A model generated the notes under the pieces. The model saw only the letters and a program-made list of their open reading frames with translations, had not been told where the DNA came from and searched no databases. Positions 1,926 through 15,778 of a stretch of 64,000 nucleotides of DNA are shown piece by piece. How positions within the stretch are numbered: position 1 is the stretch's first letter; each line of letters opens with the position of its first letter. Source of the stretch: Escherichia coli (lineage in GTDB: Bacteria > Pseudomonadota > Gammaproteobacteria > Enterobacterales > Enterobacteriaceae); NCBI RefSeq assembly GCF_003790525.1, contig NZ_CP033635.1. One strand, given 5' to 3'. The position numbers and the translations under genes were made by a program.

Positions 1926-2954
1926 TTATTTCACCTGTACCACCACAAACTCATCCGGGTCCGGCAACACCATCAGCGGCGCGGACTGCGTCATGGTAAA
2001 TTCACGGGCGGGATCCCCCACCGTCAGCCAGTGTTTCGGATAACGGGAAGAGGCCACCACGCCTTCAGACAACGCCTGTGCATCCTGAATGGCACCGTAA
2101 CAACGGATCCCATCTGCAGCAGTATTCCCCAGGACCAGCGTGCCGTCTGGCAGATAACGTTTTTCGGTACCGTCCTCTGCCACATAAGACGTTTTCGCCA
2201 CCACAATGGCCAGATCACCGTAATACCCTTTGAAAGACACCACCGCCCCCAGGTCTTTCACTGCCGTTTCGAGTTGCGAATTTGAACCGCGACGGGTATC
2301 CAGTTTTTCGCGGAACAGCTTAAAACCATTCAGCAGACGCCAGACGCTACCGTCCATGATGGCAATATTCACAAGGCCGCTGGCCTGGTCGCAGTAGAGG
2401 TCAATATCATGCGCAGGATCGAACGTGTCACGATCGTGCTCAGACCATTTTTTACCACTGGCCTGCGTAATGTTATTCGCCGGCGATCTGCCAAAATCGA
2501 CCTCAATTTTCTCGAACTGGTCTCCTTCCATGGTGTATTTGCCATACAGCACGGCATTTACCGCCTGCATTTCTTCCACCTGGACAATCGCGTACTCTTC
2601 CTGTTTGAGGTTATCGGTAATGATACGCAGACGGCGGTAAGCCGGATCGTTCAGTTGAGCCGGATCTTCACCAGGAAGGCGCTCAACCGCCTGCCGGGAA
2701 TTAAATTCGTGTTTCGGCTTGACGTAGCCCGGACGCAACACGCGGGTTTCACCACCACGATGACGCAGCACTTTTCCTTCAACAACCGGGGAGACATAGG
2801 CCGCCACCGGCGTTTTTCCGGTAATTTTGTCCAGCATCACCTCTTCGGTATGGAAATTCACCGTACGACGGAAAAACAGCTCCAGAAACAGCGCACGAAA
2901 TTTCACTTTTTGTTCGGTATAACCGAGTAACTGGCGGGTCGTAAACAATCCCAT
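1926..2954 (-). CDS. E: Phage major capsid protein E
   Basis: 342 aa; motifs LRPGYVKPKHEFN, IVQVEEMQAVNAVLYGKYTM, LDTRRGSNSQLETAVKDLG, DPAREFTMTQSAPLM match lambda gpE from memory. Confidence 0.9.
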   Translation of the reverse strand: MGLFTTRQLLGYTEQKVKFRALFLELFFRRTVNFHTEEVMLDKITGKTPVAAYVSPVVEGKVLRHRGGETRVLRPGYVKPKHEFNSRQAVERLPGEDPAQLNDPAYRRLRIITDNLKQEEYAIVQVEEMQAVNAVLYGKYTMEGDQFEKIEVDFGRSPANNITQASGKKWSEHDRDTFDPAHDIDLYCDQASGLVNIAIMDGSVWRLLNGFKLFREKLDTRRGSNSQLETAVKDLGAVVSFKGYYGDLAIVVAKTSYVAEDGTEKRYLPDGTLVLGNTAADGIRCYGAIQDAQALSEGVVASSRYPKHWLTVGDPAREFTMTQSAPLMVLPDPDEFVVVQVK

Positions 2955-3011
2955 AAATCAGTTCCTTTCATTCTGAAATCAGTCAGGCCACCGCGGTGGC
3001 CTGATAACGTG

Positions 3012-3359
3012 TTACGGCAGCGCCGCGTGACTCAGGACACTGCCGGCAAAGGCGTTGGCCTTTTTGTGTTCATCCACACTGTCAGGCCAGCGGATTGCCT
3101 CCGTCGCAAAAGTCCCCGACTTGTAATACGTCAGCACCGTCTCTGTGCCTTCAAGCGGCAGTACCAGTATGCCAACCGCACCTCCGGCTTTCTGTCCGTC
3201 CCAGACCACCAGTTTCCCGGTGGCTTCATCCAGCATCAGGGGCGTCAGTGCCGGTGTTGCCGAGGAAATCCCGCTGCTGCCTGTGGCGGTGTGAGCCGGA
3301 TCATTACCGGCAAAAATACGTACTTCCGCACGCTGTTCAGTGATGGTTTTCGTTACCAT
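3012..3359 (-). CDS. D: Phage head decoration protein D
   Basis: 115 aa; NDPAHTAT...TPLMLD...KLVVWDG...AVGIL...YKSGTF resembles lambda gpD; located between C and E. Confidence 0.8.
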   Translation of the reverse strand: MVTKTITEQRAEVRIFAGNDPAHTATGSSGISSATPALTPLMLDEATGKLVVWDGQKAGGAVGILVLPLEGTETVLTYYKSGTFATEAIRWPDSVDEHKKANAFAGSVLSHAALP

Positions 3360-3395
3360 ATTGTCAAAACCTCATATTGATGGTCAGCACTGACT

Positions 3396-4901
3396 TCATG
3401 GCATGGCCATGAGCATTTTCACGTCCGCATCACCGTCTGCTGACGTCTGTGGCACGCCACCCTGTACCGCTGCCGGTGAATGGTTCGCCATGAAATGTTC
3501 AAACATGGCGGTTGTGGATGCAGAGACCGGTTCTGCCTTACCTGATCCCGCAGCCAGCACAGCCCGGGCGTTCTCCACGGTCATTCCCGGGCAGGCAGCC
3601 AGCTGTTCAGCCTGCGCCTCAGCCCCTTTTGCCTCATCCAGGGCCATGATCTGATCACGGAGTGATGGTCCGGCATCCGCCTGCGGTGAAGCTGCCAGGA
3701 TCGGGCGGGCTTTTTCCACCGTCATCTCCGGCATCGCCGCCAGCGTTGCCGCCAGTTGTTCACGACCTTTCGCCTCTTCACACGCCATAATGCGATCGGC
3801 TTCACTCTGCGCGGATGCCACCGGCTGCTGTGGTGCCGCCGCGGCCAGGATCTCCCGGGCCTGTTCAACGCTCATGCCCTGTTGTCCCGCCAGCATCGTG
3901 GCAAGCTGTTCACGTCCTTTCGCTTCCTTACTCGTCAGGATCCCCATCACTCGCTGGTTCTCCTGCGCGGCGGCTTCCGTTGCAGTTAATTGCGGCATAG
4001 TGCCTCCTGTATCATGTGTGTACAGCGCCGTGGTCATCACACTGATGGCATCCGACGCATTGACTAATTCATCCGCCAGCCCGGCCTCAATGCCGGACTG
4101 ACCTTCAAAAACGGCGGCCTCTGTTCCCGTGACCACATCCACAGACAGCCCGGTATACATCGCCACTTTTTCGGCAAACATCCGGTGTGCCGCATCAATG
4201 CGCTGCTGCATGTCCTGACGCACCTCTTCCGGTAAGGCTTCAAACTGATTGCCATCCACCTTGTGCGCCCCGGCATAAATCAGCGTGATATCCACACCGG
4301 CCTGCGCCAGATGACCGGCATAGCTGAGATGGCTCATCATCACGCCAATGGAGCCGATACGGGATGTCTGGGTAACCAGCCGTCGGGAGCAGGCCGACGC
4401 CAGCAGCATGGCTGCAGAACAGGCCGTGTCATTGCACAGTGCCCAGACCGGCTTCTGCTGACGGAGGCGGTAAATCATGTCAGCACAGTCAAACGCGCCT
4501 GCGGCCTGCCCGCCCGGACTGTCAATGTCCAGCAGTACGCCCCGGACAGCGGTGTCCGCCATTGCCTGCTGAAGACAGGCGACAATGCCGTCATAGCCTG
4601 TCATTCCGGAAAATGGCCGCATACCACCCAGCCGGTGCACCAGCATGCCGGTCACCGGCAGTACAGCAATACCGTTCACCACCCGGTAAACACGGGCCGG
4701 TCGTTTACCTCCGGCCATGTACTCGTCCGTTTCAGCCAGCATTCCGGGAGCATCAAGCTGTACCTGCTGTTGTGGTACCGAAAGACTTGCTGCCCCCATC
4801 TCGCGCCCGAGCGCGCAAAAGAAAACCCGCGCATAGGCGGGCTCCAGAAGCAGCGGTTCATTGAATGCTGCGGCAATAATGTGTGAAAGATTACGTCTCA
4901 C
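3396..4901 (-). CDS. C: Phage head maturation protease/scaffold (gpC-like S49/ClpP-family peptidase with Nu3-like repeat-rich C-terminus)
   Basis: 501 aa; N-terminal serine peptidase-like region (LLDIDSPGG, CNDTACSAAMLLA); C-terminal third carries three imperfect ~35-aa repeats (EAKGREQLA...M(S/T)VE.AR.ILAA); between B and D as in lambda. Confidence 0.8.
   Translation of the reverse strand: MRRNLSHIIAAAFNEPLLLEPAYARVFFCALGREMGAASLSVPQQQVQLDAPGMLAETDEYMAGGKRPARVYRVVNGIAVLPVTGMLVHRLGGMRPFSGMTGYDGIVACLQQAMADTAVRGVLLDIDSPGGQAAGAFDCADMIYRLRQQKPVWALCNDTACSAAMLLASACSRRLVTQTSRIGSIGVMMSHLSYAGHLAQAGVDITLIYAGAHKVDGNQFEALPEEVRQDMQQRIDAAHRMFAEKVAMYTGLSVDVVTGTEAAVFEGQSGIEAGLADELVNASDAISVMTTALYTHDTGGTMPQLTATEAAAQENQRVMGILTSKEAKGREQLATMLAGQQGMSVEQAREILAAAAPQQPVASAQSEADRIMACEEAKGREQLAATLAAMPEMTVEKARPILAASPQADAGPSLRDQIMALDEAKGAEAQAEQLAACPGMTVENARAVLAAGSGKAEPVSASTTAMFEHFMANHSPAAVQGGVPQTSADGDADVKMLMAMP
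3644..3989. repeat. Imperfect ~105-bp tandem repeats (about 3 copies) inside the C/Nu3-like gene
   Basis: Recurring DNA blocks such as ccgccagttgttcacgacctttcgcctcttcacacgccat / gcaagctgttcacgtcctttcgcttccttactcgtcag; they encode the repeated EAKGREQL...ILAA protein motif. Confidence 0.6.
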
Positions 4902-6483
4902 GTGGTGTTGTCTCCTCTTCCGGCCTGCGACTCGCCGCTATCTGCTGCTGATACGCCTGCGCTATCCACACCGGACGTGAGAGTCCGGCTTTTTCCCGCT
5001 CTGCAGATTCCCTGACCTGCTGGCGGAAAATGTCCTGATAATCCTCACCCATCAGCGCCAGCTCTTTCTCATACGTGCTCAGTCCGGCCTCAATGCGCAT
5101 CACCGATTCCTGGACCTCCTTGAGCCCGTCAATGGCCATTCTTCCGGCTCCAATCCACTCTGCCCGTGACCAGGATGAACGCGCCTGATAAAAATCAAAA
5201 CGCGCCCGTGGCGGACGAATAATCCCCCGCAGAAGAGCCTCTTCCAGCCAGCAGGAAAACATCTGCGTGGCCAGCCGGGCCGCAATAAATTTTCGCCGCC
5301 CCATAAAATAGCGCCACGACTCATTGGCGGAGGCGCGGGCACTTGAATAACTGACCTTCGAGTAATCACGGGACAACTGTTCGTAGGAAACGCCAAGACC
5401 GGCGGCGATATACCGCAGCAGCGCCTGTTCAAGCGCAGAAAATCCATTGTCTGAATCCTGCGCAGTCTGTAGTTTCAGATCATCACCGGGGAAAAGGTGC
5501 GGAATTTTGACACCGCCCAGTGTCACGTTATTCGTGTCATACCAGCTGGAGAACTTCTCCAGAATATTAATAAGCGGATTATCCTTCTGCCCCTGCGGCG
5601 CACCGGCGATATATTCAAAGGCCTTTTCGGTATCAAGTTCACTTTCAATCGTCGCTGCATACATCGCCTTCACTATGGCTGACTGAAGCTGTGTTGCCTG
5701 CAGGGAATCGAGCATTTTCAGCCGTTCCATGACGCTGTAAAACTGATTAGCCCCACGGGTCTGCCCGTCCTCAACCGGCTCGAAAATATGCAGCATGGCC
5801 GGACGCCCGGTGGGAAGTTCACGCGGGATCCGTTCCCATCGTCCACTACCAGAGAGCGGAAAATCATCCTCACAGATATGGTACGCAACGGCCCGTCCAT
5901 GCCGATCGACCTCCACCCCGGCCCGCAGAAAGCGGTTCCCCAAACCGTATCCTGGCGTGTCCACCCGTTTCGGACTCACGGCTTTAAAACGCGTACGAAA
6001 CAGCTGCGTAGTCTCCGCATCCCAGACCGGCTGCACAAAGATTTCGCCGTTAAACGCATGAACGCCCACGCCTTCCCGGATAAATTCCGTGAACGTGCGT
6101 TTTCCTTCCACGTCGATCTCGCCAGACATCCCTTCGGCGTATTCCGACCAGGCCGCCTCCACCTCATCGACAAAGCTTTTTGCTGCGGTCTCCCGCATCC
6201 CCAGCCAGCGCCAGTTCGGACGGTAGCTGATCAGAAACATATGCCCGACTATGTGATCCTTATGCAGGGCCACCGCATTAGCCGCTATTCCGTTATTGCG
6301 CACCAGATCATCTGCCCGGGCATTCCCCAGACGCAACGCGGGGAGCAGGGCCGCATCGACACTCTGCGCCGGTGGCAACCACTCCGCCATTTGCCCGCCA
6401 AATCCTGCGCCGCCCCCGTTGTAGCTGAGACTCTCACGAAGCGGAACGCCGTTCACATCAATCAGGACAGGCGTTCTTTTCAT
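4891..6483 (-). CDS. B: Phage portal protein B
   Basis: 530 aa; size, position (between W and C) and sequence consistent with lambda gpB portal. Confidence 0.9.
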   Translation of the reverse strand: MKRTPVLIDVNGVPLRESLSYNGGGAGFGGQMAEWLPPAQSVDAALLPALRLGNARADDLVRNNGIAANAVALHKDHIVGHMFLISYRPNWRWLGMRETAAKSFVDEVEAAWSEYAEGMSGEIDVEGKRTFTEFIREGVGVHAFNGEIFVQPVWDAETTQLFRTRFKAVSPKRVDTPGYGLGNRFLRAGVEVDRHGRAVAYHICEDDFPLSGSGRWERIPRELPTGRPAMLHIFEPVEDGQTRGANQFYSVMERLKMLDSLQATQLQSAIVKAMYAATIESELDTEKAFEYIAGAPQGQKDNPLINILEKFSSWYDTNNVTLGGVKIPHLFPGDDLKLQTAQDSDNGFSALEQALLRYIAAGLGVSYEQLSRDYSKVSYSSARASANESWRYFMGRRKFIAARLATQMFSCWLEEALLRGIIRPPRARFDFYQARSSWSRAEWIGAGRMAIDGLKEVQESVMRIEAGLSTYEKELALMGEDYQDIFRQQVRESAEREKAGLSRPVWIAQAYQQQIAASRRPEEETTPRET

Positions 6484-12719: not shown

Positions 12720-12796
12720 TGGACCGCCACCGGGGACTCGAACCCCGCACAGTCAGCTTAGAAGGCTGATGCTCTCTCCTGATGAGCTAGTAGCGG
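12720..12796 (-). tRNA. argN: tRNA-Arg (anticodon UCU)
   Basis: Minus-strand read CCGCTAC..CTCATCAGGAGAG..CAGCCTTCTAAGCTG..GGGGTTCGAGTCCCCGGTGGCGGTCCA: 7-bp acceptor (one G-U), anticodon loop with UCU, T-loop TTCGAGT, encoded CCA. Confidence 0.8.
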
Positions 12797-12797
12797 T

Positions 12798-12873
12798 TGG
12801 TGGCCCTTGCTGAATTTGAACCAGCGCCCTTGCGATTATGAGTCGCTCGCTCTCACCACTGAGCTAAAGGGCC
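12798..12873 (-). tRNA. ileZ: tRNA with CAU anticodon (Ile2-lysidine type or Met)
   Basis: Minus-strand read GGCCCTTTAGCTCAGTGGTGAGAGCGAGCGACTCATAATCGCAAGGGCGCTGGTTCAAATTCAGCAAGGGCCACCA: canonical cloverleaf, anticodon CAT, encoded CCA; resembles the ileX/ileY-type tRNA carried by lambdoid phages. Confidence 0.8.
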
Positions 12874-14671: not shown

Positions 14672-15778
14672 ATGAAAAATTTAACAGTGGCACTTTCTGC
14701 TGTAGCAGCATCAGTATTTCTGGCAACGTCTTCAAATGCAGCAGAAATATACAATAAAGATGCAAACAAAGTGGATTTATACGGTAAAGCAGTTGGTTTA
14801 CATTATTTTTCTTCTGATAAGGACCAAAACGGAGATCAGACTTACGCACGCCTTGGATTCAGAGGTGAAACCCAAATAAATAATTATATTACTGGTTTTG
14901 GTCAGTGGGAATATAATTTCCAGGGGAACAACCCTGAAGGGGATGGAGCTCAAACTGGAAACAAGACTCGCCTGGCATACGCTGGTCTGAAGCTTGCAGA
15001 TGCTGGCTCTCTTGACTATGGTCGTAACTACGGCGTGGTGTACGACGCATTAAGCTACACTGACGTCTTCCCGGAGTTTGGACCTACCACAGCGCAAAAG
15101 GATAACTTCTTCGTTGGTCGTGTAGGCGGTGTTGCCACATACCGCAACACTGACTTTTTTGGACTGGTCGATGGGCTTAGCTTTGCAATTCAGTATCTGG
15201 GAAAAAATGAACGCAAGGATAAACCAGATACTTCAAACGGAGAGGGTGTAGGTGGCTCTGTCAGCTATGAATATGAAGGATTTGGTTTTGTCGCAGCATA
15301 CGGCGCTGCTGATCGTACTAAAAATCAGAAAAAGGCTGAGCTTGGTAAAGGGAAAAAAGCTGAACAGTGGGCCACCGGGGTAAAATATGACGCAAATAAT
15401 CTGTACCTGGCTGCCAGTTATGGTGAAACAAATAATACCCGTGCAATATCGTATGGTGATAATATTTCAGGAGTGGCGAATAAAACCGAAGATTTCACTG
15501 TTGTGGCACAATACCAGTTCGACTTTGGATTACGCCCGTCTCTTGCTTATACCCACTCTAAAGCAAAAAACCTTTCATCCAGTACTGATATTAGTAAAAA
15601 ACATGATGACGGATATATTGAAAAATTCGTTGAAGTAGGGGCTTCTTATTACTTCAACAAAAATATGTCTACATACATAGATTACAAAATCAATATGCTC
15701 GATAAAAATAAATTCACTGAAAGAACAGGAGTATCAACCGACGATATTGTCGCTGTTGGTCTGGTTTATCAGTTCTGA
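14672..15778 (+). CDS. Outer-membrane general porin, prophage-encoded (NmpC/Lc/OmpC family)
   Basis: 368 aa; signal peptide then AEIYNKD.NK.DLYGK...; [10 protein letters not shown]; [12 protein letters not shown]; [15 protein letters not shown]; C-terminal [12 protein letters not shown]; typical 16-strand porin signature, closest by memory to the DLP12 nmpC product. Confidence 0.9.

Follow-up and report, generated by a model that had tools for sequence, protein, structure and literature searches.

Why does the head protease gene of an Escherichia coli prophage encode the same small segment three times near its end, and what might the repetition do? The gene lies on the minus strand of a 64,000-nucleotide stretch of contig NZ_CP033635.1 (assembly GCF_003790525.1), which we call the window. 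A first-pass annotation of the letters saw three imperfect in-frame tandem repeats of about 105 bp at 3644-3989, in the Nu3-like scaffold portion of the gene, each encoding a helical unit of the EAKGREQL...ILAA type; it held that copy number can vary between related phages and pointed to the array as a possible site of assembly errors or recombination. We describe the array as a diverged protein-domain repeat that is old, that is maintained as protein, and that is already on record in phage 21. We then weigh what the units may contribute to the building of the prohead.

Three units of about 41-44 amino acids occupy the C-terminal third of the 501-residue protein. Each is recovered by a hidden Markov model (HMM) of the unit:

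3831..3962, minus strand: repeat unit 1, amino acids 314-357, ENQRVMGILTSKEAKGREQLATMLAGQQGMSVEQAREILAAAAP (unit HMM E 1.5e-25)
3681..3803, minus strand: repeat unit 2, amino acids 367-407, EADRIMACEEAKGREQLAATLAAMPEMTVEKARPILAASPQ (unit HMM E 1e-27)
3540..3662, minus strand: repeat unit 3, amino acids 414-454, LRDQIMALDEAKGAEAQAEQLAACPGMTVENARAVLAAGSG (unit HMM E 2e-26)

The repetition is plain at the level of the protein. Self-comparison, the very analysis by which the annotation could have fallen, yields strong off-diagonal segments under BLOSUM62 at offsets of 50, 47, and 97 residues. Scores on the self-diagonals over a 25-residue window are 73, 69, and 57, far above those of 200 shuffled sequences (mean 31, maximum 44), and the unit HMM scores lie between E 1e-25 and 1e-28. 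An invariant pattern, E-A-x-G-x-E...A...L-A...M...A...L-A, is kept in all copies. The units share 53-65% identity as protein and 59-69% as DNA; a seed-and-extend comparison of the DNA finds a 97-nt core in 3 copies, 65-70% identical to the reference copy, and the longest exact words common to the unit pairs are 9, 9, and 6 nt. Tandem Repeats Finder (TRF), run over positions 2500-5000 of the window with a minimum score of 30, reports no array. Successive units start 150 and 141 nt apart (50 and 47 amino acids), with non-repeated linkers of 9 and 6 codons in between. The repeat is thus a diverged protein-domain repeat and not a nucleotide tandem repeat: a DNA tandem repeat has contiguous copies of at least about 70% nucleotide identity, and the array falls outside that class because TRF reports no array, the cores are only 59-69% identical, and the linkers are non-homologous. 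The length of about 105 bp first given for the repeats is roughly that of the conserved core, but their period is longer and the copies are separated by linkers. Likewise, the interval first proposed lies inside the gene but reaches just ~19 nt (~6 codons) into unit 3 and misses about 100 nt of it.

The triplication has been seen before. Across its full 1506 bp, the gene is 96.5% identical in DNA to genes 5/6 of phage 21, and GenBank record M81255.1 marks three repeat_regions in gene 6, named 'Tri1 box', 'Tri box', and 'Tri3 box' (104, 111, and 114 nt), each labeled 'function unknown; putative'. Placed on the window, Tri1 covers 3828-3931 (unit 1), Tri 3681-3791 (unit 2), and Tri3 3537-3650 (unit 3); the boxes coincide with the units, which were found independently. 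Since the Tri boxes map onto the units, the finding is a rediscovery: by position and sequence, the units are the phage 21 Tri boxes, already known, real but ordinary. Phage 21 (M81255.1; complete genome OL657228.1) has the same positions for the three units, the same start and ribosome-binding site (RBS) for a nested gene 6, and the same flanking genes for portal, decoration (shp), and major capsid. It differs by point substitutions only, at 25/501 amino acids (95% identity); the largest cluster is at amino acids 294-298, immediately before the internal start.

What protein, then, carries the units? The features of the gene are as follows:

3396..4901, minus strand: head protease/scaffold gene, 501 amino acids, GTG start, stop included (from the list of open reading frames, ORFs)
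4029..4466, minus strand: S49 (SppA-type) serine peptidase domain, amino acids 146-291 (Pfam PF01343)
4003..4008, minus strand: Shine-Dalgarno AGGAGG, 4 nt upstream of the internal ATG (read from the sequence)
3396..3998, minus strand: nested in-frame scaffold gene, 200 amino acids (phage 21 gene 6; lambda Nu3 analogue), with its internal ATG at 3996-3998
3399..3539, minus strand: non-repeated C-terminal tail, amino acids 455-501 (AlphaFold2 model and alignment)

On the evidence of its sequence, we identify the gene as the lambda C-type S49 prohead protease of a phage-21-like E. coli prophage. The S49 domain sits in the N-terminal two thirds of the protein, as in the lambda C/Nu3 and phage 21 gp5/gp6 type; it matches Peptidase_S49 (PF01343) at amino acids 146-291 with E 6.3e-36, scoring 124 bits where the cut-off is 24.9, and it also matches the SppA structures 3rst (B. 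subtilis) and 4kwb with E 1e-15. The whole 501-residue protein matches the PHROG family phrog_53, 'head maturation protease'. The position between portal and decoration/capsid genes is also that of the type: on the minus strand, the order is terminase, a W-like gene, portal (4891..6483), the protease/scaffold gene, a D-like decoration gene (3012..3359), and an E-like major capsid gene (1926..2954), and identical head-gene order is annotated in TUM1886 and EC332.

The units belong to 2 predicted products. A co-terminal scaffold is predicted to be translated from the internal start with its own RBS, and all three units fall entirely within its frame. The internal ATG with a strong Shine-Dalgarno sequence is conserved in 7 relatives, including phage 21, Gifsy-1, the UTAK-3 prophage, lambda, N15, and phi80. 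Phage 21 records M81255 and OL657228 annotate an RBS plus gene 6, or a scaffolding protein, in this frame, and phrog_8399, 'head scaffolding protein', matches the nested 200-residue protein in 3 stretches. The original description of a head protease gene with a Nu3-like scaffold portion is borne out by the PF01343 and phrog_53 matches, by the nested ATG with its AGGAGG, and by phage 21 gene 6. In lambda, both scaffold and protease enter proheads and are then removed proteolytically (PMC3224144).

How many units do related phages carry? By the unit HMM, there are 3 full units in phage 21, the window, Gifsy-1, and several Salmonella prophage proteins; one in lambda, N15, phi80, Aeromonas phiARM81ld, and Stenotrophomonas BCU1; and four in E. 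coli UTAK-3 and NY1601, whose 538-residue proteins are encoded in intact head operons. The expectation that copy number varies among related phages is thereby upheld, with 1, 3, or 4 units in relatives and, as described below, rare in-frame deletion alleles. The nested product is 131 amino acids long in lambda, 137 in N15 and phi80, 197-200 in Gifsy-1, phage 21, and the window, and 236 in UTAK-3; its length tracks a unit number of 1, 1, 3, and 4 in those phages. Beyond these, among the 1.84 billion cluster representatives searched, a unit profile matches 1701 clusters (50% identity) at E <= 1e-3. Among the 58 full-length representatives (>= 380 amino acids) in the top 150 profile matches, 56 have one unit, one has two, and one has three. 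Because 56/58 carry a single unit, one copy is the norm, and arrays of several copies are rare expansions confined to particular lineages. In complete E. coli genomes, with at least 80% coverage of the gene required, the lambda type (1 unit) is found in 3141/5426, the phage 21 type (3 units) in 1865/5426, about a third, and the four-unit type in 105/5426.

The one-unit relatives are instructive for what they share and what they lack. Lambda C/Nu3, N15 gp5/gp6, and phi80 gp5 have the same S49 protease, the same in-frame nested co-terminal scaffold, and the same gene order. The lambda unit, ENSRIMGILNCEEAHGREEQARVLAETPGMTVKTARRILAAAPQ, is clearly homologous to the window units (56-62% identity), and the lambda major capsid protein E is 60% identical to its window homologue. 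The differences lie in the scaffold: the lambda type has one unit, preceded by a low-complexity segment of 50-60 amino acids that runs from the scaffold start to the unit, and is shorter overall (131-137 amino acids, against 200 in the window). In the window scaffold, the stretch before unit 1 is just 12 amino acids, against ~50-60 in the one-unit Nu3 of lambda and N15. The Gifsy-1 gpC homologue (STM2605, 498 amino acids) and related Salmonella prophage proteins have the three units and the internal start of the window gene; Gifsy-1 differs in its ~73% DNA identity in the protease part, in shorter linkers, and in a diverged tail.

The four-unit proteases of UTAK-3 (WP_063103806.1) and NY1601 (WP_089624677.1) belong to the same gene family and context, and their first unit shares 74-82% identity with its counterparts in the window and phage 21. 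Units 2-4 of the four-unit gene, at L011:1495-3111 in UTAK-3 and L012:1481-3097 in NY1601, are 85-94% identical as protein and 77-80% as DNA, and no exact word common to them exceeds 21 nt. Two readings fit: old duplications held by very strong constraint on the protein, or selection in favor of synonymous differences because they suppress recombination between copies.

When did the triplication arise, and has it been kept? Units of the window and Gifsy-1 that occupy the same position are 68, 79, and 65% identical, against 50-62% for mismatched positions. Because same-position units are the most alike, the triplication happened before these phage lineages of E. coli and Salmonella diverged. 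The paralogous units are saturated at synonymous sites, with a proportion of synonymous differences (pS) of 0.61-0.67. These comparisons point to an ancestral module of ~44 amino acids that was duplicated twice, in frame, long ago. A recent duplication or an assembly artefact was considered and ruled out by the low DNA identity, the saturated synonymous sites, and the positional orthology with Gifsy-1. Between the window and Gifsy-1, the ratio of nonsynonymous to synonymous divergence (dN/dS) is 0.12 for the units and 0.16 for the N-terminal amino acids 2-301, which include the protease domain; it is 0.43 for the first linker, 0.19 for the second linker (5 codons), and 0.43 for the tail. Substitution patterns thus indicate that purifying selection acts on all three units as strongly as it does on the protease domain. 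Every unit is therefore maintained as protein, which argues against decay, a pure spacer role, or a function at the level of DNA.

The array is stable in length, with few exceptions. In a sample of 36 (near-)full-length three-unit matches, spread across the ranking of complete E. coli genome matches, 35 are exactly 1506 bp. Natural deletion alleles, like the four-unit variants, were first spotted in a word-indexed search with the 200-residue scaffold, whose matches are mostly contig-end fragments. E. coli GN02270 (WP_001253887.1; L003:301-1749) has a 57-nt in-frame loss within unit 2. Metagenome contig L015 has a 126-nt in-frame loss that removes unit 2. Contig L014 has a 150-nt deletion of exactly one period, which fuses units 1 and 2 into a hybrid across a GCCCG microhomology. 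All 3 of these independent in-frame deletions remove or shorten unit 2, and neither unit 1 nor unit 3 is touched by any. An 80-nt query across the junction of the 57-nt deletion returned 554 full-coverage records, which were discarded, as undeleted genes were included among them. Frequent recombination or assembly error is unsupported, because DNA identity between units is 59-69% and exact words reach 9 nt at most; given these values and the constant length of 35/36 alleles, the suggestion that the array is a likely site of such events does not hold up.

The unit is predicted to be a small fold of its own. For unit 1 alone (a 50-residue construct, 76-sequence alignment), AlphaFold2 gives a compact three-helix bundle with a predicted local distance difference test score (pLDDT) of 93.3 and a predicted template modeling score (pTM) of 0.74; the helices span residues 2-12, 21-28, and 35-44. 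The helical character first read from the letters is thus matched by three predicted helices per unit. The model of the 200-residue scaffold (10-sequence alignment) shows the three units as separate helical bodies at moderate confidence, with linkers of low confidence and a pTM of 0.28; from the last 2 features, we take it that the units have no fixed arrangement with respect to one another. Each unit is predicted to fold alone into a three-helix mini-bundle, and the units are joined by short flexible linkers rich in Pro, Gln, and Ala.

Where else is this fold found? Foldseek against viral models retrieves it, at template modeling (TM) scores of 0.88-0.90, in three other viral S49/prohead-protease proteins, from Salmonella phage 37, Synechococcus virus S-ESS1, and an uncultured siphovirus. 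No chain in the PDB is a sequence relative of the unit. In Pfam, the best E-values for the unit or the 200-residue scaffold are 0.05-0.08, well below cut-offs, and NCBIfam has 0 families for the scaffold; PHROG families alone cover the unit region (phrog_8399, 8940, 17040, and 1999). The Z/B domains of staphylococcal protein A, three-helix bundles arranged in tandem, were tried and set aside: they are 9-18% identical, with Z at noise for small helical bundles, and provide an architectural analogy only, no evidence of homology. A closer functional parallel is the helix-turn-helix coat-binding domain of P22- and phi29-type scaffolds, also a small helical element of a scaffolding protein, which docks on the N-arm of the coat protein (PMC11922011). 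It differs in having no sequence relationship to the window unit, which is three-helix, repeated, and common to a protease; by neither sequence nor fold likeness does the unit group with the solved P22/phi29 scaffold domains.

What would such units do? Their likeliest role, judged by analogy, is that of a protein-binding module: probably, the units are a multivalent binding module for prohead assembly. The overall explanation that we favor, with some reservation, is that of a phage-21-type gene 5/6 pair whose Tri-box docking units make the scaffold multivalent. The docking reading draws on the functional analogy with P22- and phi29-type scaffold elements (PMC11922011). Each unit would be a protein-protein docking module that recruits scaffold and protease into the growing prohead; it would recruit both because the C-terminus is common to both. 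Its likeliest partner would be the inner face of the major capsid protein, with the portal or self-association as alternatives; the capsid protein is our leading guess, and portal or self-association its main rival. Three copies on flexible linkers would yield a multivalent scaffold, in which one chain could bridge several capsid subunits, and multivalency may make up for an N-terminal segment that, at 12 amino acids before unit 1, is very short.

Three considerations weigh against the multivalent docking scaffold. Alleles without all or part of unit 2 suggest that three units are perhaps not strictly required. The homologous capsid of lambda (60% identity in E) assembles with a one-unit scaffold, so multivalency is not obligatory. 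Lambda gpNu3 is reportedly intrinsically disordered, going by the title of a study of Medina et al. from 2011, which is hard to square with a module predicted to fold with confidence.

The strongest alternative assigns the contacts differently. In this account, the units serve scaffold self-association or the portal/protease complex (the B-C-Nu3 initiator), and contact with the capsid is made by the non-repeated tail. The extreme C-terminus of scaffolds and proteases is a capsid-targeting element in P22 and HK97, which counts for this account. The tail itself combines a single predicted helix (TAMFEHFMANH) with a disordered stretch and a hydrophobic end (KMLMAMP); in the 200-residue AlphaFold2 model, the helix comprises residues 163-173, and the rest of the tail has low pLDDT. 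Across E. coli and Salmonella relatives, the tail keeps the motifs F-(D/E)-x-F-M-x-x-x-S-P and a terminal hydrophobic L-(L/M)-M-S/A-(I/M)-P. Retention of the F..FM..SP motif and the LLMS-P end from phage 21 to the Salmonella relatives again speaks for a role of the tail, which is, from its sequence, a candidate alternative capsid-targeting or protease-cleavage element. The known partners of lambda Nu3 cut both ways: they comprise the portal B, the protease C, and Nu3 itself, to which a yeast two-hybrid signal adds the capsid protein E (PMC3224144). Nu3-Nu3, Nu3-C, and Nu3-B are established interactions and favor self-association or an initiator complex, but the reported Nu3-E two-hybrid interaction counts against leaving the capsid to the tail (PMC3224144). 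So does the pace of evolution, as the tail changes much faster than the units (dN/dS 0.43 against 0.12), and so does the breadth of conservation, as nothing else in the C-terminal region is conserved as widely as the unit, with its 1701 clusters. On balance, we regard this division of labor as a serious contender, though an unlikely one.

A second alternative is that the extra units bind nothing specific and act as bulk or a length spacer, standing in for the long low-complexity segment at the N-terminus of one-unit Nu3 proteins and so keeping the size or volume of the scaffold in the prohead about right. The trade of 12 residues before unit 1 in three-unit scaffolds for the ~50-60 of lambda and N15 fits this idea, as does the persistence in genomes of alleles with unit 2 deleted. 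A pure spacer would not be expected, however, to evolve at a dN/dS of 0.12 or to keep an invariant pattern in all copies; the true spacers, the linkers, evolve faster and vary in length, and total scaffold length is not conserved, at 131 to 236 amino acids. We consider a spacer role improbable.

A role at the level of DNA (recent duplication, assembly artefact, recombination hotspot, or CII-type regulatory sites) can claim the three independent in-frame deletions in the array and the two CII-pattern matches that OL657228 marks in gene 6, both present in the window, but it is very improbable in view of the 59-69% DNA identity with exact words of at most 9 nt and no TRF array, of synonymous sites saturated between units while the protein is conserved, of the same 1506-bp gene in 1865/5426 complete E. 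coli genomes as well as in a phage whose isolation dates to the 1950s, and of TTGYN6TTGY occurring 17 times in the window against 16.5 expected. The two CII-type matches (TTGYN6TTGY at 3746-3759 and 3980-3993, plus strand, antisense to the scaffold) are at chance frequency and were rejected as meaningful.

Other features of the window describe the prophage and its host. Adjacent genes for tRNA-Arg (anticodon TCT) and tRNA-Met (CAT) lie at 12720-12873 on the minus strand, inside the lambdoid prophage, with the lysis genes on one side and the Q/porin region on the other. A 368-amino acid ORF at 14672-15778 on the plus strand lies in the late-regulatory region of the prophage; in TUM1886, the closest complete genome, the gene at the equivalent position is 1107 nt long and annotated as 'porin', between holin and antiterminator Q. 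The ORF is likely a prophage-borne outer-membrane porin of the lysogenic-conversion type. An integrase is annotated under the TUM1886 match, which starts at about 25.8 kb of the window. Positions 25001-50000, beyond the prophage, are E. coli chromosome, with torZ, flhA, argS, tap, and dgt. Compared with complete E. coli genomes, this part has its best match at 95-99% identity in 5400/5431 records; the three best are 97.2-97.8% identical, and identity of at least 99% is found in 22 records only. No complete E. coli genome covers at least 80% of window positions 1-25000 in one place. From these identity bands and this coverage, the host seems to come from a lineage that has been sampled less, and the prophage is a mosaic.

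What does the locus mean for this family of phages? As a discovery, the triplication has little weight: it is in M81255, and the gene is in about a third of complete E. coli genomes. What is added is a description at the level of the domain, a census of copy number (1-4), evidence of ancient origin and purifying selection, and the absence of the unit from curated libraries. If the unit is a capsid- or portal-docking element, it would provide a handle on how Nu3-type scaffolds and the C protease enter proheads, a step that is poorly understood. We tentatively raise a broader possibility, that the ~44-amino acid unit is a widespread, autonomously folding three-helix 'prohead docking' domain of S49 protease/scaffold proteins, unlisted in curated libraries, whose copy number sets the valency of the scaffold. 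If this were true, lambda-type phages would offer a natural series of 1, 2, 3, and 4 copies on closely homologous capsids, in which the effect of valency on the nucleation, fidelity, and size of assembly could be tested.

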